A stretch of DNA of 64,000 nt from Patescibacteria group bacterium. GTDB taxonomy: Bacteria; Patescibacteriota; Minisyncoccia; Phycocordibacterales; PALSA-1337. The position numbers were made by a program, and so were the translations under genes. Within the stretch, counting starts at the first letter, position 1, and each line of letters begins with the position of its first letter. The stretch lies in contig JAGXAG010000003.1 in assembly GCA_018971685.1 (NCBI GenBank), forward strand, positions 24,366-88,365, in the 5' to 3' direction. Below the pieces are notes generated by a model that was given only the letters and a program-made list of their open reading frames with translations, did no database searches and was not told the origin of the DNA. Positions 13,854 through 51,185 of the stretch are shown in pieces.

Positions 13854-13887
13854 ACTGATTACCGCAAATTCAATCCTGATATTTCGA

Positions 13888-15872: not shown

Positions 15873-15882
15873 GATTGTATTT

Positions 15883-15970
15883 GCACATGTCCGACATATG
15901 CAAACCTTCGTCATTAAAAAGTCATACTTTCGTCACCAAATCGTTATCAATTTGTAATCGTATTGCAATC
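15883..15970. promoter_or_regulatory. conserved upstream element shared with the pilB upstream region (GTCGGAC-core palindrome plus TTGTAATC-N3-TTGCAATC direct repeat)
   Basis: GCACATGTCCGACATATGC at 15883..15901 and TTGTAATCgtaTTGCAATC at 15952..15970 parallel 11539..11573 and 11647..11665. Confidence 0.45.
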
Positions 15971-16033
15971 TCAGTCTGATACGCTTCTGTATTATTAGCG
16001 GTTTAACCTAGCGGCTAATCAGCCGTAAAAACT

Positions 16034-17755: not shown

Positions 17756-18549
17756 TCCCGGGATTTTGCTGCTCTATCTATCGTTGTTGCAGAGATACTG
17801 TCTTTGCCCAACCAACCGCCGATCAATTCTTTTGTCTCGCGCGGGTCTTTCACTTTAATACAATCAATGCCAGTCGCTTTTGCCGGATAATCGTTGCCGC
17901 CCTGGAATAGTGCATCGCCGACAAAAACCATGCGGTCCAGCGGCATCTTCAGATATTCTTCGAGCTTTCTGATGCCGTAGCCCTTATTAACGCCACGCTT
18001 GGTGATATCTATGGAGGTGGTGCCGCCGATACGCACATCAAATTCCGGGATTTTGTTTTTCATTATGTCAACGATCTTTTGGCGTTTGGCATGTCCCGGA
18101 TCCCAGGCCGATTTAAGAGCCAAAGGCGCTTGCTGTCCCAGTGCCGAAAAAGTTATTTGTGAACCGCGATCTTCTATTTGCTGTCCGTAAATTTTGTCCG
18201 GCGTCGCGATTCCGGCCATCATGAGCGACTCGTTCAAGGCTGTCAAAATTTTCTCTTTTTCTTTGGGGGACAGGTGCTCGGCGTATTCTTCACACCACGC
18301 ACCTTTCCATGTGTACAATTTGGTGCCCGAAGTCGGCAACAACAACAAATTGCTCAAGCGGTCGCTTGCGGTCGGCAATCTGACCAGGAATTGTGTTTCG
18401 AATTGATGAAATCCGCCGCCGGAGATCACCGCCACCTTCTTTTTTTCCAGCAAATTGGAGAGTAATTCGCCCATATCCGATTCGAGTGGCGATTTTGAAG
18501 GCGCTAGTGTTCCGTCAAGATCGAATATTATAAGATCGTAGTTAGGCAT
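17752..18549 (-). CDS. phosphomannomutase-like HAD-IIB hydrolase (eukaryotic PMM type)
   Basis: FDLDGTL HAD motif I, ISGGG, and the cap/C-terminal signatures GGTTSIDITKRGVNKGYGI and VFVGDALFQGGNDYPAKA. These parallel eukaryotic-type PMM (GG.ISFDVFP.GWDK, FFGD...GGND). Confidence 0.6.
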   Translation of the reverse strand: MPNYDLIIFDLDGTLAPSKSPLESDMGELLSNLLEKKKVAVISGGGFHQFETQFLVRLPTASDRLSNLLLLPTSGTKLYTWKGAWCEEYAEHLSPKEKEKILTALNESLMMAGIATPDKIYGQQIEDRGSQITFSALGQQAPLALKSAWDPGHAKRQKIVDIMKNKIPEFDVRIGGTTSIDITKRGVNKGYGIRKLEEYLKMPLDRMVFVGDALFQGGNDYPAKATGIDCIKVKDPRETKELIGGWLGKDSISATTIDRAAKSRD

Positions 18550-18570
18550 TTGTAAACTGCGAACATCGGT

Positions 18571-20475
18571 TCATGTTTCCAGCATTTTCAGTATAGCACT
18601 TACTTTTACTGTCGCCACTCCGACTACGCTGTCGGCGGCACCGTAATATATGTACGCAGTATTACCTCGTACCACCAGGCCGCAAGGGAAGACGACATTG
18701 GGCATCGCGCCCTTGCGCTCGTATTCAGCTTCCGGCTCAAAAAGCGGTATTGCGGTGCGGGCTTTGATGACGGTTGGATCTTCCAAGTCGAGTAATACGG
18801 CGCCGATACGATAAGTTGTGCTCCATGATACGCCATGATACAAGAGCAGCCAACCTTCTCTCGTCTTTATCGGCGGTGCTGAAATGCCAACCTTGCCGCC
18901 GTCCCACATGCCGCGTCTTGGCGACAACATCTCGATACATTCATTGATTTTTTCTTTTGAAAAATCCAAAGAATTCAAAAAGTCGGCGCAAACACTTTCT
19001 TGGACACGATGAAAAACCATATACTTACCATTTACCGGCTCTGGCAAGATGGTGGCGTCTTTATCCATGATATTGGGCGGCGTGATCACTTGCGGTTCGG
19101 TCCAAGCACCCCACTTTTTGTCCAGGAATTCCTTTTCACCTATAAATGATACGGCTACGCGCGGCGTGCTGCCGTCATAGGCGGTGTAGGACATATAGAG
19201 GCGGTCGCCGATCTTGACTATGCGCGGGTCCTCACAGCCATAATTACTCTTTTCGTTGCCGCGTCTCTCGAAGACCGCACGCGGGAAATAAATCGGCTTG
19301 TCCAATCGTTCGTCGATGGATAGGCCGTCATGCGAAGCGGCATAGCCTATAGTAGATACATTCTCGTCGGAAACAGCGCGGTAGAGAATATGGATCTTGT
19401 CGCCGAGTTCGACCGCGGCCGGATTCATGGTGCCTTTCGCTTCCCAGGAATAGCCTGGTCTGGACGCGATGATCGGATTGCCGGGGAATCGGACGATTTT
19501 TTTCTCCTCGATACCAGTGATGCTTTTGAGCAGATTATCCAAAGGGATTGTGGCGACGGCGCAATAAGTGTCGGTGGCGCCATAATATACTTCCAAACGG
19601 CCGTTTTTGATGAGCGCGCCTGACGGGAAAATCACATTCGGTACCTGGCCGACTTGTTCATAGTATGCGTCCGGCACCATGAACGGTCCCTTGGTGCGTC
19701 CGATGACCGTACGCGGATTTTCCAAGTCCAACAAAATTGTTTCAATACCGAAAGTTACATCGGCGGTGCCGTATCTCTGGATATGCGCGTATACCACCAA
19801 CCACCCCTTGTCGGTTTTAACCGGTGGCGCGCCCAATTCCAAGTGATCGCTTGGCAATCTGCGGATATGGATCTTATGCGCATCCAGATTCTTCCGCCAA
19901 TCTTCCCAATATTGCGACGACCACATGTCTTCAATCTTGTCGAATTCAGCATAGCAGATATCCGATGGCGGGTGATCAGTGTTAACGGTCAAGAGCAGGC
20001 CGATTTTGCCGTTAATCCTCTCAGGAAACATAGCGATACCTTTTGCGTTGAACGGCGTTATCGCATGCTTTTCTTTGATCATATTCAAATCATCGCTTAT
20101 AGCCACGGCGGTTTTTATATTCTCGGCCGAGAATGGGTAGCCGCCGAGGCCGGTGTAGAAAATATAGTATTTGCCTTCAAATGCGGTGACGCGCGGGTCT
20201 TCACAGCCGAACTTGTCGAACGGTTGGTCTGGCCGTACCAACAGCTTTCTGTCGGTGAAGTGCCTTCTATCCGGTTCGGCCAAAGCCTTGGCAATCGCCG
20301 AAGTTCTTATATGCGGCTCTTTCAGCAGCTGCGGTTCGGACATCGCCCGATAGACCAAGTACATGTCTTTGCCGTGAATTATGGGACAGCCGTTAAAAGC
20401 GGCCGCGGCTTCCCATGGGTGATCTTTGGTGGGCGAAAGAATGGGATTGTGTTCGGAGCGGGTGAGAGTGAACAT
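18571..20475 (-). CDS. tandem double-domain GH130 family protein (mannoside phosphorylase/glycosidase-like)
   Basis: Two successive GH130 modules, each with the NPI(L/I).P..WE..FNP, GCEDPR, KGWL..YH and YYGA(A/T)D signatures. The track start is TTG 20523. ATG 20475 (MFTLTRSEHNPILSP) is preferred and leaves a 44-bp gap after the upstream gene. Confidence 0.8.
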   Translation of the reverse strand: MFTLTRSEHNPILSPTKDHPWEAAAAFNGCPIIHGKDMYLVYRAMSEPQLLKEPHIRTSAIAKALAEPDRRHFTDRKLLVRPDQPFDKFGCEDPRVTAFEGKYYIFYTGLGGYPFSAENIKTAVAISDDLNMIKEKHAITPFNAKGIAMFPERINGKIGLLLTVNTDHPPSDICYAEFDKIEDMWSSQYWEDWRKNLDAHKIHIRRLPSDHLELGAPPVKTDKGWLVVYAHIQRYGTADVTFGIETILLDLENPRTVIGRTKGPFMVPDAYYEQVGQVPNVIFPSGALIKNGRLEVYYGATDTYCAVATIPLDNLLKSITGIEEKKIVRFPGNPIIASRPGYSWEAKGTMNPAAVELGDKIHILYRAVSDENVSTIGYAASHDGLSIDERLDKPIYFPRAVFERRGNEKSNYGCEDPRIVKIGDRLYMSYTAYDGSTPRVAVSFIGEKEFLDKKWGAWTEPQVITPPNIMDKDATILPEPVNGKYMVFHRVQESVCADFLNSLDFSKEKINECIEMLSPRRGMWDGGKVGISAPPIKTREGWLLLYHGVSWSTTYRIGAVLLDLEDPTVIKARTAIPLFEPEAEYERKGAMPNVVFPCGLVVRGNTAYIYYGAADSVVGVATVKVSAILKMLET

Positions 20476-20519
20476 TTCGATGAATAACCAATAATCAAGA
20501 TACAATAACCAAACAACGA

Positions 20520-21644
20520 TCAATCAATTTTACCATAGTCGTTCAACCAATCCAGCAACCCTTTGAGCGGCGTATGCGCCACGCACACATGCTTGTCGCC
20601 GCCGCCGTAGTAGACAAAGAGATCATTGTTTTTGATCGTGGCACCGCAAGCGTATACCACTCCCGGTTTCCAATCGTTCTCGTACCATTCCGACGGCACC
20701 AATATCGGCGCTGGCGAGCGCGCTATGACTTTGGTCGGTTCAGCCAAATCGAGCAGCATGGCTCCAAGCTTATAACCGATCTGCGGCTCTTTCTTGTCCA
20801 TGGCGTGATACAAGAGCAGCCAGCCGCGATCGGTTTTCAAAGGCGGCGGCCCGGCGCTGCGAACCAAATTATCCCAATGATTAGGCCGGCCCGGTTGCGG
20901 TCCGCTCTTTCTGGGACTTTCGATTTCTCGCGGGATCGAATCTATCGAATCGACATATTCTATCTCTATCTTCGGTACGATGGAGTGAATGATGGCGAAT
21001 TTGCCGTTGATCTTTTCCGGGAATAAAACCCAGTTTTTGTTTATCTGATTCTTGGAAGAAATGAATATCGGCCGCCTCCAATTCCAGCGCTTGTTGAAGA
21101 AATCCGACGCTTTGATCGAAGTCACCGCGATCCGGATGAAATCCCAGCCGTCAAAGGCGTTGTAAGTCATGTAAATATTGTCGCCGATCCTGACCAGTCT
21201 AGGATCTTCACAGCCGCCCCAACTGCCGCCGGAAGGGAACATGACGGGGTCGGGCTTTTTCAAATCGTCAGGAACATCTTCGACGATATTTTCCCTTGGC
21301 TTCCGCATGGCGAATACCGGATAATCTGACCGGTCATCGAAGCGCAAGCCGTCTTTGCTGGAAGCGTAACCGATGCGCGAGACGCCGTCGGAACCGATAG
21401 CGCGGTAGAGGAGATGCACGCCGCCCTTGTCGTCTTGGATTGCCGCAGGATTGAAAGTGCCGGCCGCTTCCCAGTCATTCCAAGATTGTGGCGATATGAC
21501 CGGATTGGCGCCGTGGCGCTTGACTTTGGAATGGCCATAAATTATTTCTCGGCTACGCGCGGCCGCGAGAGCATATAATAGGACAACAACTGCGGCTGCG
21601 AAAGCGATTAATGATATTAAAAGTGCATTGTACGATTGTTGCAT
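20520..21644 (-). CDS. GH130 family protein with N-terminal transmembrane anchor
   Basis: TM helix LLISLIAFAAAVVVLLYALAA, then the GH130 signatures NPVISP..WEAAGTFNPAA, GCEDPRLV, RGWLLLYHA and VYYGGGD. Confidence 0.8.
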   Translation of the reverse strand: MQQSYNALLISLIAFAAAVVVLLYALAAARSREIIYGHSKVKRHGANPVISPQSWNDWEAAGTFNPAAIQDDKGGVHLLYRAIGSDGVSRIGYASSKDGLRFDDRSDYPVFAMRKPRENIVEDVPDDLKKPDPVMFPSGGSWGGCEDPRLVRIGDNIYMTYNAFDGWDFIRIAVTSIKASDFFNKRWNWRRPIFISSKNQINKNWVLFPEKINGKFAIIHSIVPKIEIEYVDSIDSIPREIESPRKSGPQPGRPNHWDNLVRSAGPPPLKTDRGWLLLYHAMDKKEPQIGYKLGAMLLDLAEPTKVIARSPAPILVPSEWYENDWKPGVVYACGATIKNNDLFVYYGGGDKHVCVAHTPLKGLLDWLNDYGKID

Positions 21645-33793: not shown

Positions 33794-34453
33794 ATGAATC
33801 ACGCTGGCGCAGTTGAAAATGCTAAAAATGCGCAAAACACCGCGCCTGCGCAAACCAAAGATACAGATACGGGACAAGATGAGAAAGAGATATTGAAGGG
33901 ACAATCGAAAGGGTGGCAAACTCTCCGGGAATGGGCGCAGACAATCATCATCGCTCTTATAATAGCTTTGCCGATACGTTACTTTGTGGCAGAACCGTTC
34001 ATTGTCTCTGGCGCTTCTATGGATCCCACTTTTGCTTCCGGGCAATTTCTGGTAGTCGACAGGCTATCGTACAGATTCGAAAAGCCGCAAAGGGACGCGG
34101 TTATAGTATTTGAATTTCCCAACAATCCAAGCGTGTACTATATCAAGCGCATCATCGGTCTACCCGGCGAAACTCTAAAGATAAACGACGGAAAGATTAC
34201 TGTCATAAATGCTGCTCATCCCGACGGGCTTATTCTCGATGAGCCTTTCGTATCGCCTGCGCACGCTTCGCACGACACAGAAACCGTTACATTGGGACAG
34301 GGCCAGTATTTTGTCATGGGCGACAATCGCGCCCAGAGTTCAGATTCCAGGGCGTGGGGGAATTTAGACGCAAAATACATAGTTGGCAGACCGATTTTGC
34401 GACTTTTACCATTGAATAAATTGGCAATTTGGCCCGGCGATTATGAAAAATAA
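33794..34453 (+). CDS. lepB: signal peptidase I
   Basis: S26 boxes: SGASMDPT (catalytic Ser), Lys box (YIKRIIGLPGE) and GDNRAQSSDSR. Confidence 0.85.
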   Translation: MNHAGAVENAKNAQNTAPAQTKDTDTGQDEKEILKGQSKGWQTLREWAQTIIIALIIALPIRYFVAEPFIVSGASMDPTFASGQFLVVDRLSYRFEKPQRDAVIVFEFPNNPSVYYIKRIIGLPGETLKINDGKITVINAAHPDGLILDEPFVSPAHASHDTETVTLGQGQYFVMGDNRAQSSDSRAWGNLDAKYIVGRPILRLLPLNKLAIWPGDYEK

Positions 34454-38773: not shown

Positions 38774-41260
38774 ATGGCAAAAAAGAACGAAAAAAACGCG
38801 CCGGAAAATGGCAAAAACACGGCGGAACCGGCGGTTGACGCGGGCGTTTTGCAGCAACCGATAGCGGAAGAAATGCGCCGGTCATTCCTGGACTATGCCA
38901 TGTCCGTGATTACCGACCGCGCTTTGCCCGATGTGCGTGATGGTTTGAAGCCGGTGCACCGCAGGATCTTGTATGCCATGCATGAAAAAGGCCTTACCGC
39001 CGCCGCCAAATTCCGCAAATCGGCCGTGGTAGTCGGCGATGTGCTCGGCAATTATCACCCACACAGCGATGCCGCCGTTTACGATTCGATGGTCAAAATG
39101 GCCCAAGAATTTAGCATGCGCTATCCGCTGGTGCAAGGTCAAGGAAACTTCGGCACCATCGACGGCGACAGCGCCGCCGCCATGCGTTATACCGAAGCCA
39201 GAATGTCCAAGATTGCCGCCGAACTTTTGAAAGATATAGACAAAGACACCGTCGATTTTCGCCCCAATTACGACGGCACCAAGAAAGAGCCGATCGTCTT
39301 GCCGACTTCGGTGCCAAACCTGCTCTTGAACGGCACGCTCGGCATTGCAGTCGGCATGGCGACCAACATTGCGCCGCATAACCTGAATGAAATCGCCGAC
39401 GCGGCTATCCATCTAGTCGACAATCCCGAAGCCACAACCGAAGACCTCGTGCGGTTCGTCAAAGGTCCCGATTTCCCGACCGGCGGAGTCATGTACGGCG
39501 AGAAAGACATACATCACGCCTATGCGACCGGCCGCGGCGGCATCGTCGTGCGCGGCGAAGCGGAAATCGTCGAGGACAAAAAAGGCCAATTCCAAATCGT
39601 CATAAGTTCCATCCCTTACCGCGTGAACAAAGCGTCGCTCATAATGCGCATAGCCGATCTGGTGCGAGAAAAGACGATCGAAGGCATCAAAGCTTTGCGC
39701 GACGAATCGACCAAAGACATCCGCATCGCGATCGATCTCAAGCAGGGCTCATTCCCGGAAAAGATCCTAAACCAGCTCTACAAGCACACCCAGCTCGAAG
39801 AATCATTCCATGTCAACATGGTCGCGTTGGTCGACGGCGTGCCGCACACGCTCGGATTAAAATCGATTTTGGCGGAATTCGTCGATCACCGCGTCACCGT
39901 CATCCGCCGGCGCACGCAGTTTGACCTCAACAGAGCCGAGGAAAGAGAACACATACTTCTGGGACTGAAAAAGGCGCTCGATCACATCGACGAGATCATC
40001 ACTTTGATCCGCGCTTCCAAAGATGTCGCCGAAGCCCATGCCGGCCTGATGAAGAAGTTCAAATTCAGCGACAAGCAGGCGACCGCCATTCTGGAAATGA
40101 AATTACAAAAGCTGGCCGGGCTTGAGCGCAAGAAGGTGCTTGACGAGCTGAAACAAGTCCAGGAATTAATCGCCGAATTGAAGGAGATTTTGGGGAGCGA
40201 AAAGAAAGTCCGCGGTATCATCAAGACCGAGCTCGGCGAAGTAAAAGCCAAATACGGCGATGCACGCCGGACCAAACTGGTCAAGCACGGCGTCAAAGAA
40301 TTCAGCGCCGAAGACCTGATCGCCGACGAAGAATCCGTTTTGGTTCTCACCAAGGGTGGCTACATCAAGCGCACCGATCCCGCCGAATACAGGAAGCAAA
40401 AGCGCGGCGGCGTCGGCGTTGTCGACTTGGACACCAAGGAAGAAGACTTCATCTCGCATTTGGTCTACGCGACCACGCACAGCGACCTTTTGTTCTTCAG
40501 CGACAAAGGCAAGGCGTATCAGATCAAAATGCACGAAATCCCCGAAGGCAAGCGCGCCACCAAAGGCAAGTCGATCATGAATTTCCTTTCCCTGGCGGAA
40601 GGGGAAAGAGTGACCTCGATCTTGCCGATGCCAAAAGACAAGAAGTCCGCCGAAGGTTTGGCTTTGATGATGATCACAAAGAACGGTACCGGCAAGAAGA
40701 CTTCGGCTGGCCATTTCAAGGATGTTAGAAGGTCCGGCCTTATCGCCATCACACTCGACCAAGGCGACGAATTGATGTCGGCATCATTCGTGTCCAAGAG
40801 TGAAGAGGCGGTTATCGCGACCAAAGAAGGGCAATCAATCCGATTCAAAGAATCCGATGTGCGTGAAATGGGGCGCAATGCCGCCGGCGTTCGGGTGATC
40901 CGTCTGGGGAAGGGCGATGAAGTCATTTCCGCCGATATTGTCTCCAAAGGATCAAAAGGAGCTATGCTATTTGTCATGAGCGCCAACGGTTACGGCAAAA
41001 AGACCGAACTTTCCGAATACAAGACGCAAAAGCGCGGTGGTTCCGGCATACTGACCATGAAAGTAACCGCCAAGACAGGACCGCTCATGGCTGCCAAAGT
41101 CATCACCGAAATCGACGAGGAGATCGTTGCCATGTCCAAAAAAAGCCAGGTCATCCGCGTCGATCTGAAAGAGATTCCGGCGCTTTCCCGCGCTACCCAA
41201 GGCGTGCGCGTGATGAAGTTACGCGACGGCGACGCTCTCGCGAGCTTGATTTGTCTGTAA
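38774..41260 (+). CDS. gyrA: DNA gyrase subunit A
   Basis: [44 protein letters not shown] (active-site Tyr region) and C-terminal beta-pinwheel repeats. Confidence 0.9.
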
Positions 41261-41335
41261 TAATATTAGGGAACACCGAGAACTTGCCCTGATGCTTTTA
41301 CTGTCCACAACGGCGTTATTTATTAGGCCGACAGT

Positions 41336-41869
41336 ATGGGATATAATATATTCATGTTTTCCGACCCCGCCTCAAACTTGGCGAAATTTGGCCTTACGGA
41401 AGGCATGAAAGTTGTCGATCTGGGCGCCGGTTCCGGCTTTTATGCTGTTGAGGCGGCGCGCAGAGTGGGTGCGAGCGGCAGGGTTTACGCGGTTGAAGTC
41501 CAGAAAGACCTGCTCGACAGAATCAGGTCCAACGGCGCCGCGGAAGGCCTGCACAATATCGAAGTCGTATGGGGCGACGCCGAGAAGATCGGCGGCACGA
41601 AACTGCGCGAAGCTTTGGCAGACAGGGTAATCGTGTCGAATATTCTATTCCAGGCGGAAAAGCCGGACGAATTGGCGCTGGAAGTAAAGCGGCTGTTGAA
41701 GCCCGGCGGCAAGGCGCTGGTGGTCGACTGGAGCGAACTTAGCCCGATCGGGCCCGGTAATATTTTTCCGGCGGCAAAAGCGCAAACGCTTTTCGAAAAA
41801 TCGGGATTCAAACTGGAACAGTCGTTTGGAGCGGGAGAACACCACTACGGATTGGTATTTACGAGATAA
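41336..41869 (+). CDS. class I SAM-dependent methyltransferase
   Basis: VVDLGAGSGFYAVEAA motif I, with acidic post-I and motif II/III patterns. Confidence 0.7.
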   Translation: MGYNIFMFSDPASNLAKFGLTEGMKVVDLGAGSGFYAVEAARRVGASGRVYAVEVQKDLLDRIRSNGAAEGLHNIEVVWGDAEKIGGTKLREALADRVIVSNILFQAEKPDELALEVKRLLKPGGKALVVDWSELSPIGPGNIFPAAKAQTLFEKSGFKLEQSFGAGEHHYGLVFTR

Positions 41870-41891
41870 AATTTCATGCCTTAAACCAATC

Positions 41892-43187
41892 ATGTCGAAA
41901 TTCCAAATAACAGTTATCGGTATCTTCATAGTCGCAATAATCGCCGGAGTGGCAGTCTTCGCTACTTACAAAGGTGCGGGAAGTTCAAGCACCCAACTGC
42001 CGCCCATAACGGTTTGGGGAACTTTTCCGGCGGACACTTTCAACAATTATGTTGCAAAAATAAACCAAACGCTGTCCGCGCCATTGGGCATTACCTATGT
42101 GCAAAAAAGCCAGTCGGCATTTTCGGACGACTTCGTCAGAGCGTTGGCGGTTGGGCAGGGGCCTGATGCCATTTTGGTGCCGGCGGACATGCTTCTGCCG
42201 CAAATGAACAAGATAACGCCGATACCTTATACCGCCTTGTCGCAGAGAACATTCATGGACTCGTACATCAACGAAGCGCAGATTTATCTTTCCAATAATG
42301 GCGCATTGGCGGTTCCATTTGTGATTGACCCGCTGGTGATGTATTGGAACAAGGACATGTTCGCGGCGGCCGGCCTGGCATCATATCCCAAGTATTGGGA
42401 CGAATTCACGGCCTTAAATAAAACGCTGACGCAAAAAGACCAAAACGGCAATATCAGGCGCTCGGCGATTGCTATGGGCGACTTTAACACGGTTCTTAAC
42501 GCTCGCGAACTTCTAGGTACACTATTCCTTCAGTCCGGCAACACCGTGACTTCCATAAGCTCTACCGGCGCGGTTACTAGCGCGCTTTCAAATTCCGGAC
42601 CGACAAATCTGTCATCAGCACTTCAATATTTTACACAATTTGTCAATCCGAACAGTTCGAATTATTCTTGGAATGGCGGAATGACTGATTCGAAAACAGC
42701 ATTTCTTTCGGGCACGCTGGCGACTTATTTTGGTTTTGCTTCGGAATTGGGCGACATTAGAGCCAAGAATCCAAACCTGAATTTTGATGTCGCGCCTATA
42801 CCGCAATGGCGTTCTGGCGGCCAAAAAGCTACTTACGGACGCATGTATGGATTTTCATTAGTGCGCGCCTCATCCAACCAAAACGCCGCTTATCAGACTA
42901 TCGCCATTTTGACCAACCAGGCCAATCTTTCCATGTTGTCCCAGATGACTTATCTGCCGCCGGTCAGTTCGTCCTTGATAGCTCAAGGATCTTCTGATCC
43001 GTATATGACGATCTTTGACCAAGCGGCGCTCATTTCCCGCACCTGGTTTGATGCCGACCAAGCGCAGTCGTATCAGATATTCGGCAATATGGTTAACGCC
43101 GTCGTGAGCGGCGCCAAGAATGCGAGTGACGCGATCAATGACGCTTCGGATCAGTATAATGTGGTGTTGGGGCAGGCGACGCAGTGA
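41892..43187 (+). CDS. membrane-anchored extracellular solute-binding protein, family 1-like (orphan)
   Basis: N-terminal TM anchor (ITVIGIFIVAIIAGVAVFATY) and an SBP_bac_1-like body (ITVWG, DAILVPADML, IDPLVMYWNKDMF). No permease or ATPase genes are adjacent. The track start is TTG 41826. ATG 41892 is preferred. Confidence 0.55.
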   Translation: MSKFQITVIGIFIVAIIAGVAVFATYKGAGSSSTQLPPITVWGTFPADTFNNYVAKINQTLSAPLGITYVQKSQSAFSDDFVRALAVGQGPDAILVPADMLLPQMNKITPIPYTALSQRTFMDSYINEAQIYLSNNGALAVPFVIDPLVMYWNKDMFAAAGLASYPKYWDEFTALNKTLTQKDQNGNIRRSAIAMGDFNTVLNARELLGTLFLQSGNTVTSISSTGAVTSALSNSGPTNLSSALQYFTQFVNPNSSNYSWNGGMTDSKTAFLSGTLATYFGFASELGDIRAKNPNLNFDVAPIPQWRSGGQKATYGRMYGFSLVRASSNQNAAYQTIAILTNQANLSMLSQMTYLPPVSSSLIAQGSSDPYMTIFDQAALISRTWFDADQAQSYQIFGNMVNAVVSGAKNASDAINDASDQYNVVLGQATQ

Positions 43188-43203
43188 TTTGCGATTTACG
43201 AAT

Positions 43204-43557
43204 ATGGCGACATTAAATCCATTTGATCCACATTTCAAACTATCGGTATGCGATGGGCCTGCTGGTGCACCCGGAGTAACGACTCCCTGTGATTTCGCCG
43301 GACTGATGGCCCAGGCGCAATTTCTCATAAATGCCATGATCATACTGGGCGTTTTGGCGGCTGTCGTCAGCTTTACTTATGCCGGATATCTGTACATTAC
43401 CGGCGAAAGGGGCAAAATCGAGCACGCCAAGGACATCTTCCGCAAAACCGGCATTGGGCTTATAATGATGCTAACTGCCTGGTTTATCGTCTATCAGCTC
43501 TTGAGCTGGCTCGCCAGCAATCCAGGCGTGACGGCGCTGTTAGGGAGTCCGAATTAA
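43204..43557 (+). CDS. small two-TM protein, VirB2/TrbC-pilin-like paralog 1
   Basis: TM1 AMIILGVLAAVVSFTYAGYLYI, basic loop GERGKIEHAKDIFRK, TM2 IGLIMMLTAWFIVYQLLSWL. Paralogous to the five following ORFs. The track start is 43120. ATG 43204 avoids overlap with the upstream gene. Confidence 0.5.
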   Translation: MATLNPFDPHFKLSVCDGPAGAPGVTTPCDFAGLMAQAQFLINAMIILGVLAAVVSFTYAGYLYITGERGKIEHAKDIFRKTGIGLIMMLTAWFIVYQLLSWLASNPGVTALLGSPN

Positions 43558-43569
43558 CATATAATTCAA

Positions 43570-44043
43570 ATGAATTTTCAGTACAAAAAATTATTAGTTG
43601 CCGGCCTGGCACTATTTGCCGCAACGGCTTTTACTTGTACCGCAACAGCTAAGACAAGTGGCCAAAGCGTTGGCCCGGCCAATACTTCCGGCCAAACAGG
43701 CGGACCAAGTACGCAAACTACGCAGACGGTAACTTTGCAGAACCCTCTTAAAGTCAATTCTGTCGGTGCCGCGATAAGCGAAGGAACGGCGATATTCAGT
43801 TATGTCGCAGTATTGGTTGCTGTTCTGGCTCTTATCTGGGTTGGATTGCAATTTATTCTTGCCAGAGGAAATACCGCCAAAATATCTGAATTGAAAAATT
43901 GGCTATGGGCCATAGTCGTCGGTATCGCTATAGTCATAGGCGCGCGCATAATAATACAAATTGTGGTAAACACTTTGGGCGCTACCAATCTGATAAACCA
44001 GAATGTAATACAAAGCGCCAGTCAAGTTATTAACGGCCAATAA
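43570..44043 (+). CDS. secreted small two-TM protein, VirB2/TrbC-pilin-like paralog 2
   Basis: Signal peptide MNFQYKKLLVAGLALFAATAFTCTATA. TM1 IFSYVAVLVAVLALIWVGLQFIL, loop ARGNTAKISELKNW, TM2 LWAIVVGIAIVIGARIIIQIVVNTL. Confidence 0.55.
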   Translation: MNFQYKKLLVAGLALFAATAFTCTATAKTSGQSVGPANTSGQTGGPSTQTTQTVTLQNPLKVNSVGAAISEGTAIFSYVAVLVAVLALIWVGLQFILARGNTAKISELKNWLWAIVVGIAIVIGARIIIQIVVNTLGATNLINQNVIQSASQVINGQ

Positions 44044-44065
44044 AATTATAAATTAATAAAATAAA

Positions 44066-44476
44066 ATGAAAAAAAACTTTCGTCTTGCCGTTTCTGCAAT
44101 CGTCGTCTCAATACCGTTTGTCGTATTTGCACAGACAAAGACAAATACTCTAAGCGATCTAATATCCCTGGTGACAAGCTACCTAAACAAGATATTACTC
44201 CTGCTTATGGGCTTCGCCGTAGTACTTTTCGTGTATTACATCATCCAATATTTTCTCAGACCGGCGGAAAAGAGAGCGGAAGGCGCGAAATATCTTATGT
44301 GGAGCATTACAGGTTTTTTTGTGATTTTATCTTTCTGGGGGATAGTCAATGTATTACAGAATACTTTCAACCTGAACAGCAATCGTCCGTCTTCATGGAG
44401 TGATTTCTTCAACATATTTCCGACGAATACAGGTACCAATACAAGCGGTAGCAGTCTCTATAGCGGTAATCAATAA
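44066..44476 (+). CDS. secreted small two-TM protein, VirB2/TrbC-pilin-like paralog 3
   Basis: Signal peptide MKKNFRLAVSAIVVSIPFVVFAQ. TM1 ILLLLMGFAVVLFVYYIIQYFL, loop RPAEKRAEGAKY, TM2 LMWSITGFFVILSFWGIVNVLQNTF. C-terminal N/S/T/G-rich tail. Confidence 0.55.
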   Translation: MKKNFRLAVSAIVVSIPFVVFAQTKTNTLSDLISLVTSYLNKILLLLMGFAVVLFVYYIIQYFLRPAEKRAEGAKYLMWSITGFFVILSFWGIVNVLQNTFNLNSNRPSSWSDFFNIFPTNTGTNTSGSSLYSGNQ

Positions 44477-44482
44477 ACAGCC

Positions 44483-44938
44483 ATGCCTCCAATAAACCAG
44501 ATAAACAATGCCAATGATGTAGTGAAATTCCTGGTATCAGTGGGTAATGTGATTATTTACTTACTTATCGCCGCAGCCGTGGTTTTCATTGTCTGGAATA
44601 CAGTTGTCTATTTCGTGAGAGGTAAACAGGGCGATGAGAACCGCAAAGAAGCCGGCCAGCACATTATGTGGGGCATAATAGGGCTAGCCATCATCTTGTC
44701 GGTTTGGGGATTGGTAAACATCGTGCTGAATACTTTTGTGACTAATAATAATGTTCCTACCAATAAATTTCCTACAGCTGATTTCATCAATAATAACCAA
44801 AACACCGGCTCGAGCGGCTTTAGCGGAAGTTATCAGAATCAGGTCTTGCCTCCGGCGGCCGGAATACCAGATCAGATGAATTATGGCAATCAGCCGCCTA
44901 CAAGCACCTTGCCTCCGGCGGCCAACTATCCGAATTAA
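44483..44938 (+). CDS. small two-TM protein, VirB2/TrbC-pilin-like paralog 4
   Basis: TM1 VIIYLLIAAAVVFIVWNTVVYFV, loop RGKQGDENRKEAGQH, TM2 IMWGIIGLAIILSVWGLVNIVLNTF. Long N/Q/P/G-rich C-terminal tail. Confidence 0.55.
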   Translation: MPPINQINNANDVVKFLVSVGNVIIYLLIAAAVVFIVWNTVVYFVRGKQGDENRKEAGQHIMWGIIGLAIILSVWGLVNIVLNTFVTNNNVPTNKFPTADFINNNQNTGSSGFSGSYQNQVLPPAAGIPDQMNYGNQPPTSTLPPAANYPN

Positions 44939-45039
44939 TGATGTTAAAAGTAATCCACAGAACGATCCTTGTGTCGTAAAGCAGATAAGTTGTATCATTA
45001 AACAGTAAATATTATTATCAATAATTAGAGATTCATAAC

Positions 45040-45432
45040 ATGAAAAAATTAATTGCAGCTATCATTTCGTTTTCTCCAGCCCTGGCCATGGCGCAGACGG
45101 CGCCGATCACAGATGTCAATTCCCTGACATACAAACTGATCGGCATAGGCAATGTCATTTTGTATTTGCTTATTGCCGCGGCGGTCATCTTCATCGTCTG
45201 GAATATAGTGATGGTTCTCATAAAAGGGTCCGATCCCGAAGCAAAGAGCGGCGCATGGAAAAATGTCGGATGGGGCGTAGTGGGCTTGGCGATCATATTG
45301 TCCATCTGGGGTTTGGTCAACATACTGACAAATACTTTCCGTACGACTCCCACTTATCAAGCAATCCCGAATATCGGGAACAATGTGAGCAACGGCGGTA
45401 TTCCTGCCAATCAGATGCCGGTGGTCCAATAG
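45040..45432 (+). CDS. secreted small two-TM protein, VirB2/TrbC-pilin-like paralog 5
   Basis: Signal peptide MKKLIAAIISFSPALAMAQ. TM1 VILYLLIAAAVIFIVWNIVMVLI, loop KGSDPEAKSGAWKN, TM2 VGWGVVGLAIILSIWGLVNILTNTF. Confidence 0.55.
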   Translation: MKKLIAAIISFSPALAMAQTAPITDVNSLTYKLIGIGNVILYLLIAAAVIFIVWNIVMVLIKGSDPEAKSGAWKNVGWGVVGLAIILSIWGLVNILTNTFRTTPTYQAIPNIGNNVSNGGIPANQMPVVQ

Positions 45433-45433
45433 C

Positions 45434-45733
45434 ATGTCTGGCCTGCTGTCATATTTTGTACCTCGAGCGAACGCGGCCGTAGATGCGGCCGCGTTCGGCA
45501 AAGTGCTCGATCCGGTGATAACCAATATCGTCAATCCGATCATTGAATTGCTTTTTGCTGTAGGCATATTTGTATTTGCTTTCGGTATTGTGGAAATGAT
45601 TGCCCACGGCGATGATTCGACTGCGCGGGAAAAAGGCAGGTGGCATATGCTTTACGGAGCGATAGGGATGTTCATCATGCTCTCGGCCTGGGGGATCATA
45701 CATTTGATAGCTAATACGGTGAAAAGCATTTGA
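45434..45733 (+). CDS. small two-TM protein, VirB2/TrbC-pilin-like paralog 6
   Basis: TM1 IIELLFAVGIFVFAFGIVEMIA, loop HGDDSTAREKGRWH, TM2 MLYGAIGMFIMLSAWGIIHLIANTV. Starts 2 nt after paralog 5. Confidence 0.5.
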   Translation: MSGLLSYFVPRANAAVDAAAFGKVLDPVITNIVNPIIELLFAVGIFVFAFGIVEMIAHGDDSTAREKGRWHMLYGAIGMFIMLSAWGIIHLIANTVKSI

Positions 45734-45800
45734 ATTAATTTTTGTATTTTACGCAAGAATAAAAAGCCGCGTGCAGAATGCGCGCGGCTTTGTGGGTGGC

Positions 45801-46280
45801 CTACTTTACCCAGATCCTGATCATTACCGGACCCTTCGCAGAGTCAATGTCTTTCGCGGTCATCTGGAACCTTTTGATTCCGGAGGTTGTAAAGTGCGAC
45901 CCTGGTTCGACAATATGGTCAACAGCGTGGTTGTCCAAATCGATGACATGGATTTCATCTGCCCACCCGTTCTCAACCCTGAAATACCAATCCATGTCGT
46001 TTGGTATTTCAAAGATCTTTGATGGTTCGGAAGTCAGCGTAATTACGACAGATTTGCCGTTTCCGATAATCCGCTTTTTGTCTTCATCGCCAATGCTACC
46101 AGAACTGGTGGTTCTGAAATAACTTACAGCGACAACAAACAAAACGAACATGATGATCAGGCCGACTTTCTTCGACGGAGTGTCGTAATACTTCCGCCAT
46201 TTACTGCCACCGGAAGACGGAGCCGTGCCACCTAATGGCTTACCGCCGAACTCCTCGTTCACTATGAATGTGTCTGCCAT
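45801..46280 (-). CDS. hypothetical membrane-anchored protein
   Basis: N-terminal Gly/Ser-rich segment, one TM (VGLIIMFVLFVVAVSYF) and a 100-aa C-terminal domain. No family recognised. Confidence 0.4.
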   Translation of the reverse strand: MADTFIVNEEFGGKPLGGTAPSSGGSKWRKYYDTPSKKVGLIIMFVLFVVAVSYFRTTSSGSIGDEDKKRIIGNGKSVVITLTSEPSKIFEIPNDMDWYFRVENGWADEIHVIDLDNHAVDHIVEPGSHFTTSGIKRFQMTAKDIDSAKGPVMIRIWVK

Positions 46281-46289
46281 GGTACACCT

Positions 46290-47267
46290 CTATTTCTTGT
46301 TTTTGTCTTCTTTTTTCTTGCTACCGAATAAGTTTTCTGGAATGAATCCACCAACACTTTGCAGGTTCTCCAAACCGCTTACATCAAAGACCTTGAATTC
46401 CGCCTTACCGTCGATTGCCAACAGAGCATTCAGTGCTTGCTTGCCGGTTATCGGTTTATCTTCTGTCTTACCGGCTTCGACAAGAGCTTTTACAGCTTCT
46501 CCGCTTTTTTTCGCTATCGCTTGAAGTTCGGCGGCGTGTTGGAATTCGTCACTGAGTGTTATGTTTCTGATTGTAAGTTCGGATGTAGCCAGACCACACC
46601 GCTTTTCTGTAGGGTGGGATTTATGGTCCCCGCCATAAATGTCTCCGAACCACTTATCCAACTCGTTCATATGTTGTATGGCGTTTTCCTGATTGACACC
46701 ACGGAGTTTCGCTTGTAACTGGCTTTCCGTGCCGGCAACAAGTATTTGCCGAGACTCGTCTTCGGTATTCCTTACCAGATTACACAAGAAACCTCGCAAT
46801 GCTTTTAACACCATTACATAACTCACTGTGAGCTTAATGTTATCCAGTGAATATGCAGTAATTGGTTTATCTATCGTGAACTGTCTACGCAGATCTACGA
46901 AGATTGCATTTTGCCAAGGCCATTTCGGATGCAGGCCCGGCCCGACTTCTTCCAGCATCCTTGTCTTTCCCAGATCCATTGGATCGGAATCTGTCGCAGG
47001 CTTCTTGTAGCTCAAGAACCTATTGGACAATACTGCGCCGTGAAAATCGGCCACATTTGCGGTGAAAAGGTTAATGCCTCTCACAAAACAAATGATTATC
47101 GTCCAAAAGGCGGTTGCAAGTATCAAGGACCAAACGGTGGTTAATCCTTGGAACAGCAACCCGAATCCCACCGACAATAAAGTGATTGCCACAAGCTGTT
47201 GAGCTCCTACAGCAACCCACATCATTGTCTCCCTAGCGTTACTTCTGCACATATCTTCATCGTTCAT
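46290..47267 (-). CDS. SPFH/band 7 (stomatin/prohibitin/flotillin/HflKC) domain membrane protein
   Basis: Two N-terminal TM helices, then an SPFH core (..VDLRRQFTIDKPITAYSLDNIKLTVSYVMVLKA..FQHAAELQAIAKKSGEA). Confidence 0.65.
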   Translation of the reverse strand: MNDEDMCRSNARETMMWVAVGAQQLVAITLLSVGFGLLFQGLTTVWSLILATAFWTIIICFVRGINLFTANVADFHGAVLSNRFLSYKKPATDSDPMDLGKTRMLEEVGPGLHPKWPWQNAIFVDLRRQFTIDKPITAYSLDNIKLTVSYVMVLKALRGFLCNLVRNTEDESRQILVAGTESQLQAKLRGVNQENAIQHMNELDKWFGDIYGGDHKSHPTEKRCGLATSELTIRNITLSDEFQHAAELQAIAKKSGEAVKALVEAGKTEDKPITGKQALNALLAIDGKAEFKVFDVSGLENLQSVGGFIPENLFGSKKKEDKNKK

Positions 47268-47730
47268 GGTGACCTTGTTGTTGTGAACCTCTCAAATCTT
47301 GGGAGGTTCCGGTTTAGAATGTCAATGCGGTGCTCATACGAGAACCGCGAACAAGTTTAATTAAAAATTAGCATCTTTTATTAGAAATGTCAAATTTTGC
47401 AAAAATACTAATCTTCACAGATTCACTTGGCAGATAATGCTGCTCGACATTGCACGAGAAATAGGAACCTTTTGGAAGACTAATAAAGCCCATATTTGGC
47501 TACCAAATATCAAGCAGGGTTTCTTTGGAATTACGAGGCCGACTGAGGCTGAGATGGCGAAGTGTTGCTAGTCTTTCAGAGAGATAACTTGAAGGCCTTT
47601 ATCATCAATATCTTGTCGTGGCCAAAACTTTGTAAGATCGTCTATCTTCCACTTACCAACATAGCCCACTTGTGGTCCTGATATGACGGATAAAAAGGCC
47701 GAAAAAACGGCTATCATTAGTCTCAAAGAA

Positions 47731-48391: not shown

Positions 48392-49873
48392 TCACCAACG
48401 ATCGAATTTCAATCGAAGCGTTGATGATTGGACTCCCGGCCTAAGCCGGAGTCGTAGCTCCTTGTGAGGTATTCTGCCTGTGGGCTTAACCTCACCCGAA
48501 GTCGGTTGTACGATTTTCCCGTCAAGGGCTGCATCGTACTGATCCGCATTGGCACTCATGTGAATGCCAAGTCCCCAGCCGTTGGGGATGACGACTTCTA
48601 CATCGTCTCCTGCGTAGACTGTAGTCTCCGGGAGCGTGAAGCCGTCTATACCGCTATCCACCAAGCACTGTGCCGGCTTTATCACCCTCGTTGGTCCGAA
48701 GTCTTTCGGCCACTGTTTGGCGGTCGTTTGATTATCACCGACCGATGTCGGAGTCGAACCACTGCGCCGTGCCGGTTCGCCATTGATCATGACAACATTG
48801 CTGTTGCCGCTGATCACGACATTGCCGTGTCCGACGACGATGAAGTTACCGTTGCCGTCAACACTACCGCCTGTGTTCGATGGAATAGGTGATGGCGCCG
48901 GCGTCACCACTGATGCTGTTGCAGGACCGGCGTTACTCACTTTGCTCGCCTTTTTCGTGAGCCTGTCTTTAATCGACAGGGCGAGTAACACGATTATTCC
49001 ACATGCCGTTATACCAACCAACGGACCAAACCACCCTGTCCCAACTACTTTTTGTAGTTTTTTGGTCATGCCACGGACTAACCAGTGGGACTCTTCTTTT
49101 TGTTGTTCTGTAGTCGGAGGTACCGGTGGAACCGTTGGGGTAGGCGCCGGTGCAGGCGTCGGTTGCGGTATCGGCTTCCTGGAAGCCAGTTTTGCCGTTT
49201 CAGCCGCGTGATGTCTCCGAAGCTCGGAAACAACCTCCTGCAGCTTGTCCCATTCCGGGTTTGCGTTGGACGCCTTGAACGAGTCGATTTGCAGTCCCAT
49301 TTCGTCCATCGCCACCGCCATATCGTTCAGCATCCTTCCGGATGGGATGATAGTTCCCGCTTCGATTTTCATGAGGTTATCCCTAATCCTTTTGAGGCGG
49401 GTCTTTATTATGTTGAACTCTGCCGGCAGTTTCTTTGAGGGAGGCGGCACTGGTGGAACCGGTTTTGTCGGTTCCGGCGCGGGAGTTGGCGGTGGAGGAG
49501 TGGGTGGGACGGGAGCCGGTTTTTCAACCGGTTTCTCCGTGAGGATCTTCCCGTCGTTGCTGATCCAGATTTCCTTTTCCCACTTATCCTCACTTCGCAA
49601 TTCGTCTCCGATCAACGCGTAAACTTCCAAGGAATACGCTACGCCCTTTTTCGGATGTCCCGTGTGCCACTTCAAGAACTCAGTGTCCTTGAGAGTGATT
49701 TGCGAGTTGGGCAGGAATTTTTCGACCATGTATGTTCCCGTCGCGGGAACCTTCTCCCCGTTTTTCGCCATAACTGTGATGGCGAAACCTTTTTGTGGCG
49801 GATATTCTGGACCCGCTGGACCTGCCTGGATCCAGAGAGTACCTTCGGTTATCTTGCAATAATCCTCGTTCAC
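48392..49873 (-). CDS. hypothetical bitopic protein with Pro-rich linkers and C-terminal beta-helix-like repeats
   Basis: Cytoplasmic N-domain, PAPVPPTPPPPTPAPEP and PIPQPTPAPAPTPTVPPVPP linkers, one TM (WFGPLVGITACGIIVLLALSI), then GNGNFIVVGHGNVVISGNSNVVMING repeats. Confidence 0.45.
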   Translation of the reverse strand: MNEDYCKITEGTLWIQAGPAGPEYPPQKGFAITVMAKNGEKVPATGTYMVEKFLPNSQITLKDTEFLKWHTGHPKKGVAYSLEVYALIGDELRSEDKWEKEIWISNDGKILTEKPVEKPAPVPPTPPPPTPAPEPTKPVPPVPPPSKKLPAEFNIIKTRLKRIRDNLMKIEAGTIIPSGRMLNDMAVAMDEMGLQIDSFKASNANPEWDKLQEVVSELRRHHAAETAKLASRKPIPQPTPAPAPTPTVPPVPPTTEQQKEESHWLVRGMTKKLQKVVGTGWFGPLVGITACGIIVLLALSIKDRLTKKASKVSNAGPATASVVTPAPSPIPSNTGGSVDGNGNFIVVGHGNVVISGNSNVVMINGEPARRSGSTPTSVGDNQTTAKQWPKDFGPTRVIKPAQCLVDSGIDGFTLPETTVYAGDDVEVVIPNGWGLGIHMSANADQYDAALDGKIVQPTSGEVKPTGRIPHKELRLRLRPGVQSSTLRLKFDRW

Positions 49874-49980: not shown

Positions 49981-50382
49981 TTACCTTTCGCCGTGCGTCC
50001 AATTGTCGTAATTCCCATAGTTCTCGCGATTTCCGTAATTTCTGTACCCGCCATATCCGTAATCTCTCTGCGGTGTCTGATAGTATCCGTAATATGAACT
50101 TATATTGTATTGGTAAGGATAATAAACCGATGGTGGCGTTGTCGGCGCACAGGGGCATTGGTAGTATGAGTAAGTAGGATAATAAGTGGGGTAATAGTAA
50201 GTCGGATAAGCTTGGTAAGCCTGATAAGCCGGATAAGCCGGATAATAGCCGTATGAACCGTAGTAATAATAATTGCCGTAATCAGCGTTCGCCGATGTGG
50301 GAATTACGGCCCAGAATGTGAAAGCCGCTATTATCGCCGTTAATGTTGCGCCGAGTGTTTTCATACCGTTAATATCATTCAT
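49981..50382 (-). CDS. secreted Tyr/Gly/Pro-rich low-complexity protein
   Basis: Signal peptide MKTLGATLTAIIAAFTFWAVIPTSANA, then YGNYYYYGSYGYYPAYPAYQAYQAYPTYYYPTYYPTYSYY..YGYGGYRNYGNRENYGNYDN. The track start is TTG 50400. ATG 50382 or 50364 is preferred. Confidence 0.5.
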   Translation of the reverse strand: MNDINGMKTLGATLTAIIAAFTFWAVIPTSANADYGNYYYYGSYGYYPAYPAYQAYQAYPTYYYPTYYPTYSYYQCPCAPTTPPSVYYPYQYNISSYYGYYQTPQRDYGYGGYRNYGNRENYGNYDNWTHGER

Positions 50383-50457
50383 ACACCCGAATCGGTGCAA
50401 AGTAAAGCGCCGCCTCTAGATTAGTCGAGAAGCGGCGCGAGCTAAGGAATTTCACTG

Positions 50458-50904
50458 TCAGTGATATCCGTAGCAATTTCCAATTGGGGATCCTCCACCC
50501 GAATAAACGGGCGGCGCACAGCTGTACCCGTACGGGCCACTGACCCCCACACTTCCGGAGTACCCGTATCCGCCGACAGGGTAACCGTATCCGAATCCGA
50601 CAGCACCATATCCACCGTAATACCCGCCGCCCGACCAGTAGGTCGAGTTCGCCGGGATCGGCTGGATGGTGTGAGACTCGGTCCCCACTGCCACCTCGCT
50701 GTCGTAATGCCGTTGGTACCCTTGAGTCCCCACGAGGGCGAACCCTCGCGAACGGTCTGTGTAGGTGGAATGATCCACCACCGTCCCGTTCGCGTACCGC
50801 ACAATGTCGTTTTTCTTTTCAATGGCATTGTGCTGGTAGGTGGCACAGCCCGTGCCACCGAACACAACCGTAGCGAGGCAAACCGACGAAACCAAATTTT
50901 TCAT
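50458..50904 (-). CDS. secreted Gly/Tyr-rich low-complexity protein
   Basis: Signal peptide MKNLVSSVCLATVVFGGTGC, then a globular segment and GGGYYGGYGAVGFGYGYPVGGYGYSGSVGVSGPYGY. The track start is TTG 51024. ATG 50904 is preferred. Confidence 0.5.
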   Translation of the reverse strand: MKNLVSSVCLATVVFGGTGCATYQHNAIEKKNDIVRYANGTVVDHSTYTDRSRGFALVGTQGYQRHYDSEVAVGTESHTIQPIPANSTYWSGGGYYGGYGAVGFGYGYPVGGYGYSGSVGVSGPYGYSCAPPVYSGGGSPIGNCYGYH

Positions 50905-51185
50905 ACTACAGTTCTCCGATTTCTCCACTGAAGCCGTCTCGAGACAATCCCGAGACTTTTTGAATAGGTTAAACAACCTCAGTGAAGTTCGCTCATAGTA
51001 TATCACAATTATTGTAATTGTCAAATTTGGAGTTATCCACAGCTCTCCTTGTGGTGTGGATAGTCAATGATGTTGTATTATACCCATTAAGTGGGACAGA
51101 GTGGGAGAGGGGCGGAAAACACATTCGTTAAGCGTTTGATGAAAAATCCGCGCACTCATATCACCACTACTCCCGCAAAAGTTTT

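Follow-up and report, generated by a model that had tools for sequence, protein, structure and literature searches.

A tandem array of six VirB2-like pilin genes and its linkage to a MalE-like solute-binding protein in Patescibacteria

A 64,000-nt stretch of the genome of a Patescibacteria group bacterium (GenBank assembly GCA_018971685.1, contig JAGXAG010000003.1, positions 24,366 to 88,365; hereafter the window) harbours six tandem genes at 43204-45733 that encode small proteins with two transmembrane (TM) segments, referred to below as pilins 1 to 6. The genes belong to a family annotated as pilins of type IV secretion systems (T4SS), retain their type and order across genera, and are directly preceded by genes for a methyltransferase and a MalE-like solute-binding protein, the latter being fused in frame to pilin 1 in some relatives. 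The reading favoured here, with a probability of about 0.55, is that the six are non-redundant VirB2-like subunits of one heteromeric structure of a Patescibacteria T4SS, with the ATPase and channel genes located elsewhere and the binding protein coupled to the structure via pilin 1. Patescibacteria are ultra-small and dependent on host cells, and how they draw material from these hosts is the question on which this cassette bears.

Architecture and positional orthology of the array

The array comprises six open reading frames (ORFs) on the same (+) strand, with intergenic gaps of 12, 22, 6, 101 and 1 nt. An earlier note on this DNA, made from its letters alone, had described them as tandem paralogs of 99-157 aa that share two TM segments and a charged loop, and both points stand: the ORFs are mutually homologous, and Kyte-Doolittle hydropathy reveals two hydrophobic helices with a short charged loop between them in every one. 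Pilin 1 (117 aa; 43204..43557, +; PF18895 35.7 bits) is without a signal peptide in this genome; its ATG at 43204 is also the NCBI start, its reading frame is open from 43120, and a conserved two-Cys motif (CDGP...PCDF) precedes the two-TM domain. Pilin 2 (157 aa; 43570..44043, +) has a signal peptide and a T/Q/G/S-rich N-extension ahead of this domain, whilst pilin 3 (136 aa; 44066..44476, +; 38.4 bits) has a signal peptide, the two-TM domain and an S/G/N/P/T-rich tail. Pilin 4 (151 aa; 44483..44938, +; 42.3 bits) extends the two-TM domain with a long N/G/P/S-rich tail and is without a signal peptide, and pilin 5 (130 aa; 45040..45432, +; 33.2 bits) possesses a signal peptide, the two-TM domain and a P/N/T/Q-rich tail. 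The minimal pilin 6 (99 aa; 45434..45733, +; 36.8 bits), which starts 1 nt past the stop of pilin 5, consists of a short N-terminus and the two-TM domain, and is tail-less. The low-complexity C-terminal tails that had been noticed on three copies are those of pilins 3, 4 and 5. A promoter and terminator scan of 41000-47500 returned counts equal to those of shuffled sequence, leaving the tight spacing of the genes as the only evidence for an operon.

With regard to conserved residues, the C-terminal S.WG motif to which the earlier note had drawn attention is present in pilins 3-6, as S.WG..N.L.NT., and is missing from the other two, the sequence there being TAWFIVYQLLSWL in pilin 1 and GARIIIQIVVNTL in pilin 2. 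In the family alignment, W63, G67, S73, W75 and G76 are near-invariant. An AlphaFold2 (AF2) model of pilin 4, built from a 77-sequence alignment, is a two-helix hairpin with helices at residues 10-46 and 51-85 (predicted local distance difference test, pLDDT, 77), in keeping with the hairpin of about 70 residues, crossing the membrane twice, that characterises Pfam family PF18895. From the charge of the loop, a membrane topology can be inferred in which both pilin ends lie outside and the basic loop lies inside. The signal peptides of pilins 2, 3 and 5 are of the N-terminal Sec type (ATA/KT, VFA/QT and AMA/QT, respectively, the stroke marking the cleavage site). The window also encodes a signal peptidase I (Peptidase_S26; 33794-34453), otherwise a housekeeping enzyme, which is likely to process these three pilins. 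At 8881-9633 (-) there is a gene for a DsbA/thioredoxin-like protein; as the two conserved Cys residues of pilin 1 fall within a predicted extracytoplasmic segment, an extracellular disulfide in this pilin is plausible. Holin-like proteins and small membrane proteins of the toxin/immunity type were considered as well, with no feature of the array in their support.

The paralogs are old, and each has its own counterpart in other genomes. Each array ORF is a real gene, with positional orthologs in 75 other species-level genomes, and in the close relative at locus L010, whose GyrA is 84% identical, every pilin has an ortholog at the same position with 57-69% identity (pilin 1 64%, pilin 5 60% and pilin 6 69%). 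The orthologs in a Taylorbacteria genome (GCA_001821115.1; locus L013) are still 44-52% identical (44, 48 and 52% for pilins 1, 5 and 6, respectively). Within the array, by comparison, pairwise local alignments give 22-52% identity, the value for pilin 4 against pilin 5 being 52%. In L010 the pilin 5 ortholog has apparently been mis-called as a 133-aa gene on the (-) strand (10514-10915); tblastn places the real gene at 10530-10880 (+).

Amongst 80 related loci, the array order is 1-2-3-5-6 in 30, 1-2-3-4-5-6 in 12 and 1-2-3-5-5-6 in five. These dominant orders indicate five ancestral types (1, 2, 3, 4/5 and 6) with lineage-specific duplication at the 4/5 position; the pilin 4 type is found only in some related arrays, and the pilin 6 type ends the array in most loci. 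The architecture of each type is likewise kept, with long N-extensions in types 1 and 2, low-complexity tails of variable length in types 3-5 (2-137 aa across species for pilin 3) and a minimal type 6. Orthologs that are closer than paralogs, together with a retained order, fit distinct conserved roles and a heteromeric assembly. The antigenic diversification that the earlier note had proposed for the paralogs is contradicted by this pattern: gene order and type are kept across genera, and a pilin resembles its ortholog in the close relative more than it resembles its paralogs.

Linkage to a methyltransferase and a MalE-like binding protein

The first gene of the cassette encodes a class I S-adenosylmethionine-dependent methyltransferase of 171 aa (41354..41869, +; Pfam PCMT/Methyltransf_11/25/31), for which NCBIfam yields generic methyltransferase matches only, all of them sub-threshold. 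It is followed by the gene for a membrane-anchored, MalE-like (family 1) solute-binding protein of 431 aa (41892..43187, +; Pfam SBP_bac_1 and SBP_bac_8). A scan of one genome per species with an alignment of this binding protein located a relative in 443 genomes; the analysis covered the 80 best loci, at 39-68% identity. In all 75 that extend past the binding-protein gene, a hidden Markov model of the pilins detects a run of pilin ORFs directly 3′ of it on the same strand; in the remaining five the contig stops at that gene. Where the contig is long enough for the whole array, the run contains 5-7 pilin ORFs, and the same layout of binding protein followed by array is found in five of five loci reached from the pilin side. 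The methyltransferase gene is equally constant, lying directly upstream of the binding protein in 81 of 81 loci by clustering and in 61 of 64 by jackhmmer, and in L010 it overlaps the start of the binding-protein gene by 4 nt. Genes beyond the methyltransferase differ between loci, with gyrA upstream in 55. Many of the cassette-bearing metagenome-assembled genomes (L015-L091) are titled 'uncultured Candidatus Saccharibacteria bacterium'; these titles look unreliable, as their binding protein is 50-66% identical to that of Taylorbacteria/Paceibacterota.

The connection between binding protein and array is in some genomes covalent. In-frame fusions of the binding protein to pilin 1 occur at four loci (L028, L060, L066 and L074), and a protein database contains five fusion clusters (P0241-P0243, P0290 and P0316) of 560-597 aa and up to eight members, which stem from independent JGI, NCBI and Logan assemblies. 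An AF2 model of the fusion P0242 (pLDDT 88) comprises an N-terminal TM helix (residues 3-26), a binding domain modelled at pLDDT above 90, a linker without order and the pilin hairpin, the helices of which span residues 484-518 and 522-557 (pLDDT 85-92). In this model the binding domain sits between the N-terminal anchor and the pilin hairpin, which would place it on the same face of the membrane as the predicted pilin N-terminus. A programmed frameshift joining the separate binding protein and pilin 1 of the window was considered and rejected: the pilin 1 frame is open for 68 nt into the upstream gene, and this overlap is not kept in relatives. Conservation of the N-terminal anchor of the binding protein (0.67) slightly exceeds the average for the protein (0.62), an excess not used as evidence herein.

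The earlier note had called the solute-binding protein an orphan, a description that no longer holds, given that it precedes the array together with the methyltransferase in every relative examined and is sometimes fused to pilin 1. Judged by this gene order, both genes belong to the pilin unit and are not unrelated neighbours. The invariant order, the in-frame fusions and the fusion model are also the grounds on which a coupling of the array to the binding protein is proposed, and the constant position of the array behind the gene for this sugar-binding protein suggests a joint role for the two on the cell surface.

The nearest solved relative of the binding protein, by sequence for the window protein and by fold for P0242, is the manno-oligosaccharide binder CpMnBP1 (4r9f/4r9g). 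The window additionally contains, at 17752-21644, two adjacent genes of glycoside hydrolase family 130 (GH130; the beta-1,4-mannooligosaccharide phosphorylase family) by a PMM/HAD hydrolase gene. The likeness to CpMnBP1 and the presence of GH130 genes are hints that manno-oligosaccharides could be the ligand. Like the binding proteins of ATP-binding cassette (ABC) importers of the MalEFGK type, the protein has a family 1 fold, and manno- or malto-oligosaccharides are the ligands of the solved proteins nearest to it. Unlike in those importers, no cluster of ABC permease and ATPase genes lies beside it, either amongst the conserved neighbours of the 80 loci or in the window neighbourhood; its invariant neighbours are instead the two-TM pilin-domain proteins.

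A further comparison, offered purely as an analogy with no homology implied, is with the bindosome of Sulfolobus (PMC3047682), in which a solute-binding protein is likewise tied to pilin-like subunits at the surface of a cell that has no outer membrane. Bindosome binding proteins, however, bear class III (type IV pilin) signal peptides, whereas the N-terminus of the binding protein here (MSKFQITVIGIFIVAIIAGVAVFATYKG) lacks both a prepilin cleavage motif of the G/F type and a Glu at +5, and is a plain TM anchor. The bindosome also uses a type IV pilus-like ATPase and platform, whilst the partners in the present cassette are VirB2-like hairpins.

Relation to VirB2, to known arrays and to surrounding genes

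Membership of the six proteins in known families was assessed against the gathering cut-offs of PF18895 (T4SS_pilin; 26.6 bits) and PF04956 (TrbC/VirB2; 27.9 bits). The former is passed by five of the six (pilins 1, 3, 4, 5 and 6; 33-42 bits, E 1e-8 to 1e-11), whilst pilin 2 remains below both (20.8 bits for PF18895; 20.9 bits, E 4e-4, for PF04956); orthologs of pilin 2 have recorded PF04956 TrbC matches. When the profiles of the ortholog groups are compared with one another, hhalign supports homology between all six, at probabilities of 97-100% overall and 97-99% for pilin 2 against the others. Pilins 3-6 additionally give sub-threshold matches to NCBIfam NF045849, a pilin-like conjugal transfer protein of Mycoplasma integrative and conjugative elements. 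Seven VirB2/TrbC genes annotated on conjugative plasmids of the MPF_T type served as the reference for canonical pilins. The profile of the pilin-2 ortholog group can be aligned to them across TM1, loop and TM2 with a probability of 61.6% (P 7.8e-5), a moderate match and the only significant one; pilin 1 (17%, P 1.4e-3) and pilin 6 (12%) follow. On the Pfam and hhalign scores, the six proteins are members of PF18895 and not of PF04956, and their apparent kinship with VirB2 is remote, running through the pilin-2 type only. The assignment to VirB2/TrbC-family pilins made by the earlier note thus survives as membership of a T4SS pilin family for five of the six, and as a VirB2 match for just one type.

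The wider PF18895-like family is large, with 27,884 representatives at 50% identity (E 1e-3 or better). Of the 150 best-scoring representatives, 67 combine 2-8 pilin domains in tandem within one polypeptide, indicating that different pilin domains are sometimes locked in one chain. Tandem-domain sequences that were inspected (P0370, P0364, P0397 and P0494) have one N-terminal signal peptide and none internally. One of these, P0494, has a large Cys-rich C-terminal domain in addition to its tandem PF18895-like domains (amongst P0361-P0503).

The distinct family that the earlier note had raised as an alternative is not a new one, arrays of this kind being already in the literature (PMC12102498, PMC10633639, PMC7427843). 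In Patescibacteria, 441 arrays of 2-11 VirB2-like genes (PF18895 or PF04956) have been catalogued in 383 assemblies, their paralogs having a mean identity of 25% and a maximum of 54%, and no more than 1135 of 1948 assemblies have the pilin gene close to virB4 (PMC12102498). In Southlakia epibionticum, six PF18895 genes encoding proteins of 103-185 aa (SEML1_0014-0019) sit beside VirB6-, PrgI- and VirB4-like genes, and all six are essential by transposon sequencing (PMC10633639). In TM7x, too, four to six small proteins targeted to the Sec pathway make up such an array. In metatranscriptomes of the Paceibacteria type, T4SS pilin genes are amongst those unknown genes whose expression is highest (PMC10936435). 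The present array resembles these T4SS arrays in its PF18895 membership, same-strand tandem arrangement, low paralog identity, protein size (approximately 100-185 aa) and phylum, and shares with S. epibionticum the number of six genes. It differs in its detachment from virB4, virB6 and prgI, and in that its genes adjoin, in operon-like fashion, those for a methyltransferase and for a MalE-like binding protein, the latter sometimes fused to pilin 1. Whilst the array itself is of a known kind, the literature searched yielded no description of an array tied in this way, and away from virB4, to genes for these two proteins.

Compared with the VirB2/TrbC/TraA pilins, the array proteins are similarly small, have a Sec signal peptide cleaved before Gln in several copies, and display two hydrophobic helices and a short basic loop with both ends predicted outside; the pilin-2 type can moreover be aligned over TM1, loop and TM2. 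Differences are the array arrangement without adjacent virB1, virB3 or virB4 (each of the seven reference virB2 genes is flanked by virB1 and virB3), a monoderm-like host in place of the diderm hosts of MPF_T and MPF_F systems, and five or six distinct subunit types as opposed to one major pilin. The VirB2/TrbC pilins are characterised by polymerising together with phospholipid as extracellular filaments.

Outside the cassette, the window and 10 kb on each side (approximately 84 kb) contain gyrB, rpoD, gyrA, tRNA synthetase genes, ftsA/ftsZ, the mraZ-mur cluster and two-component systems. A type IV pilus cluster at 11603-16540 encodes two T2SSE ATPases, a T2SSF platform protein and a 168-aa N_methyl pseudopilin, as well as a 505-aa protein with a weak LVIVD match. 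This cluster is unrelated to the VirB2-like array, so that two different 'pilin' systems lie within 30 kb of each other. Convergent on the array is a gene for a 159-aa single-TM protein (45801..46280, -) with no Pfam or NCBIfam match; at its position all sampled relatives have a (-) strand gene of 130-171 aa, with sequence homologs in only 4 of 51 loci. The sequence of this gene is fast-evolving, and its membership of the unit is uncertain. Next to it, and also convergent on the array, is a gene for a 325-aa SPFH/Band 7 membrane protein (46290..47267, -; Pfam Band_7 41.5 bits), a homolog of which lies approximately 570 bp past the array on the (-) strand in 24 of the 43 loci with enough DNA. 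Farther on, 48392-49873 (-) encodes a protein of 459 aa by the NCBI call (493 aa for the open ORF) with one TM helix, two proline-rich stretches (PVPPTPPPPTPAPEP...) and no Pfam match; relatives harbour a gene of 380-690 aa at the same place, with homologs in 2 of 31 loci. Two small secreted proteins encoded at 49981-50400 and 50458-51024 (-) contain extreme Tyr/Gly/Pro-rich stretches (e.g. YYYGSYGYYPAYPAYQAYQAYPTYYYPTYYPTYSYY), again with no Pfam match.

Proposed structure, competing explanations and significance

That the array is a dispersed component of a T4SS, one of the options raised in the earlier note, is the leading reading. It is proposed as a T4SS part because PF18895 genes sit in the T4SS locus of S. 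epibionticum and are essential there; these Saccharibacteria loci make dependence on a T4SS acting in trans the most parsimonious assumption. A non-redundant heteromer is proposed because order and type are kept, orthologs are more similar than paralogs, architectures are type-specific and tandem-domain polypeptides exist. According to this scheme, each protein would enter the cytoplasmic membrane as a helical hairpin with its ends outward and the positive loop in the cytoplasm, pilins 2, 3 and 5 inserting once their signal peptide is cleaved. The five ancestral types would then co-assemble into a short pilus or a channel-like ring, served by a VirB4-type ATPase and VirB3/VirB6-like partners whose genes would, in most relatives, lie at other chromosomal sites. 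On types 3-5, the low-complexity tails would be surface-exposed, and the membrane-anchored, MalE-like oligosaccharide-binding protein would be physically coupled to the assembly through pilin 1. The resulting glycan-binding head may serve host-surface recognition or the capture of host-derived oligosaccharides.

A number of observations weigh against this reading. Unlike in S. epibionticum, virB4, virB6 and prgI are not nearby: a Pfam search of the called genes in the approximately 84 kb revealed no VirB4, VirB6, VirB3/PrgI or VirD4, in agreement with the earlier remark that no other T4SS genes were in view. Of the two cassette-bearing relatives that appear in Table S1 of PMC12102498, GCA_001821115.1 is scored VirB4-positive and GCA_000996205.1 (GW2011_GWA1_40_21, L081), a draft, VirB4-negative; the same section of the table lists 23 Taylorbacteria drafts, 14 of them positive and 9 negative. 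None of the six proteins reaches the PF04956 cut-off, pilins 3 and 5 scoring 13-14 bits and pilins 1, 4 and 6 giving no match. A mixed family profile aligns with the seven VirB2/TrbC proteins at an hhalign probability of 0.4% (E 0.15), and pilins 3-5 individually at about 1%. Structure prediction, called for by the earlier note as a check, did return the two-helix hairpin expected of a pilin; fold searches were not decisive, returning hundreds of generic helical hairpins from which that of the array cannot be distinguished. Covalently concatenated pilin domains are hard to square with a classical filament of single extractable subunits. Lastly, a 2025 review takes such arrays as the earliest sign that a monoderm T4SS may bear a pilus, yet no pilus of these proteins has been seen on any Patescibacterium (PMC12857230).

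A competing explanation is a self-contained, VirB4-independent module in which the five or six two-TM subunits, with 10-12 helices in all, would form a heteromeric membrane ring or channel onto which the binding protein is docked or fused. It would be a new kind of device for binding-protein-dependent uptake or adhesion, a functional analogue of the ABC-importer permease or of the archaeal bindosome. This explanation is held to be clearly less probable than the reading favoured here, though not negligible. In its favour are the universal linkage of binding protein and array, the existence of fusions, the lack of an ABC permease or ATPase for the binding protein at any locus, and the single polypeptides with 5-8 pilin domains, which resemble polytopic membrane proteins. 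The cassette also occurs in a genome scored VirB4-negative, virB4 is syntenic with it in none of the 80 loci, and the binding domain is like that of oligosaccharide binders, with GH130 mannoside phosphorylases in the window. The module would, however, have no energising component within the cassette, the same family is found inside an essential T4SS locus in Saccharibacteria, and the VirB4-negative scores derive from draft genomes. In addition, at locus L024 a VirD4-like coupling ATPase of 922 aa (126-2894; DUF8128 and T4SS-DNA_transf/TraG-D_C) is encoded directly upstream of the cassette and is unusually conserved (59-81% identity over the top 120 matches). This large P-loop ORF was considered as a VirB4 and rejected in favour of the VirD4-like assignment. 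Held at about the same low probability as the self-contained module is the broader idea of a distinct, ancient Paceibacteria surface device to which the methyltransferase, the binding protein and the five or six pilin-domain genes would all belong: a heteromeric ring or short tube of hairpins of the five ancestral types, with a MalE-like oligosaccharide-binding head, in some lineages covalently attached, for host-glycan capture or recognition of the host envelope, which may operate without a VirB4 motor.

It is very unlikely that the six are interchangeable variants of one major pilin, serving antigenic variation or adaptation to host strains, as has been suggested for such arrays in general (PMC12102498). 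Low pairwise identity, the variable tail length of types 3-5, the varying copy number at 4/5 and the precedents of Bartonella and Anaplasma cited in that study would all agree with this idea. Set against it are type and order kept across genera, the greater similarity of orthologs than of paralogs, a conserved architecture for each type (such as the paired Cys residues of type 1 and the reduced form of type 6), the individual essentiality of all six genes in S. epibionticum, and the fused multi-domain proteins, which fix a 1:1 stoichiometry. Very unlikely, too, is a naming artefact in which generic small two-TM membrane proteins are captured by a hydrophobic Pfam model. The non-specific fold searches would be in line with it, as would the failure of a sequence-profile search of the PDB to match any solved pilin, the lack of a pilin 4 homolog in a tblastn search of 72,556 plasmids, and the non-significant score of the mixed profile against VirB2. 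The strength of the PF18895 matches speaks otherwise, as do conserved motifs beyond mere hydrophobicity, the bridge to VirB2 provided by the pilin-2 type, and relatives in T4SS loci that are essential in Saccharibacteria.

The one species of Patescibacteria that is genetically tractable depends for its viability on its T4SS and on the unusual array of pilins that goes with it, and the coupling of such an array to a binding protein, lineage-wide and sometimes covalent, supplies a testable handle, since it predicts both a physical complex and a ligand class. It further predicts a heteromer of fixed stoichiometry instead of a homopolymeric pilus, and the positional orthology of the subunits speaks against the published suggestion of antigenic or host-range variation (PMC12102498). 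Should the coupling amount to operon-level co-regulation only, the locus would be one more array of a known type. If the reading as a surface device is true, the cassette would represent a new class of binding-protein-coupled conduit, made from the parts of a secretion pilin.

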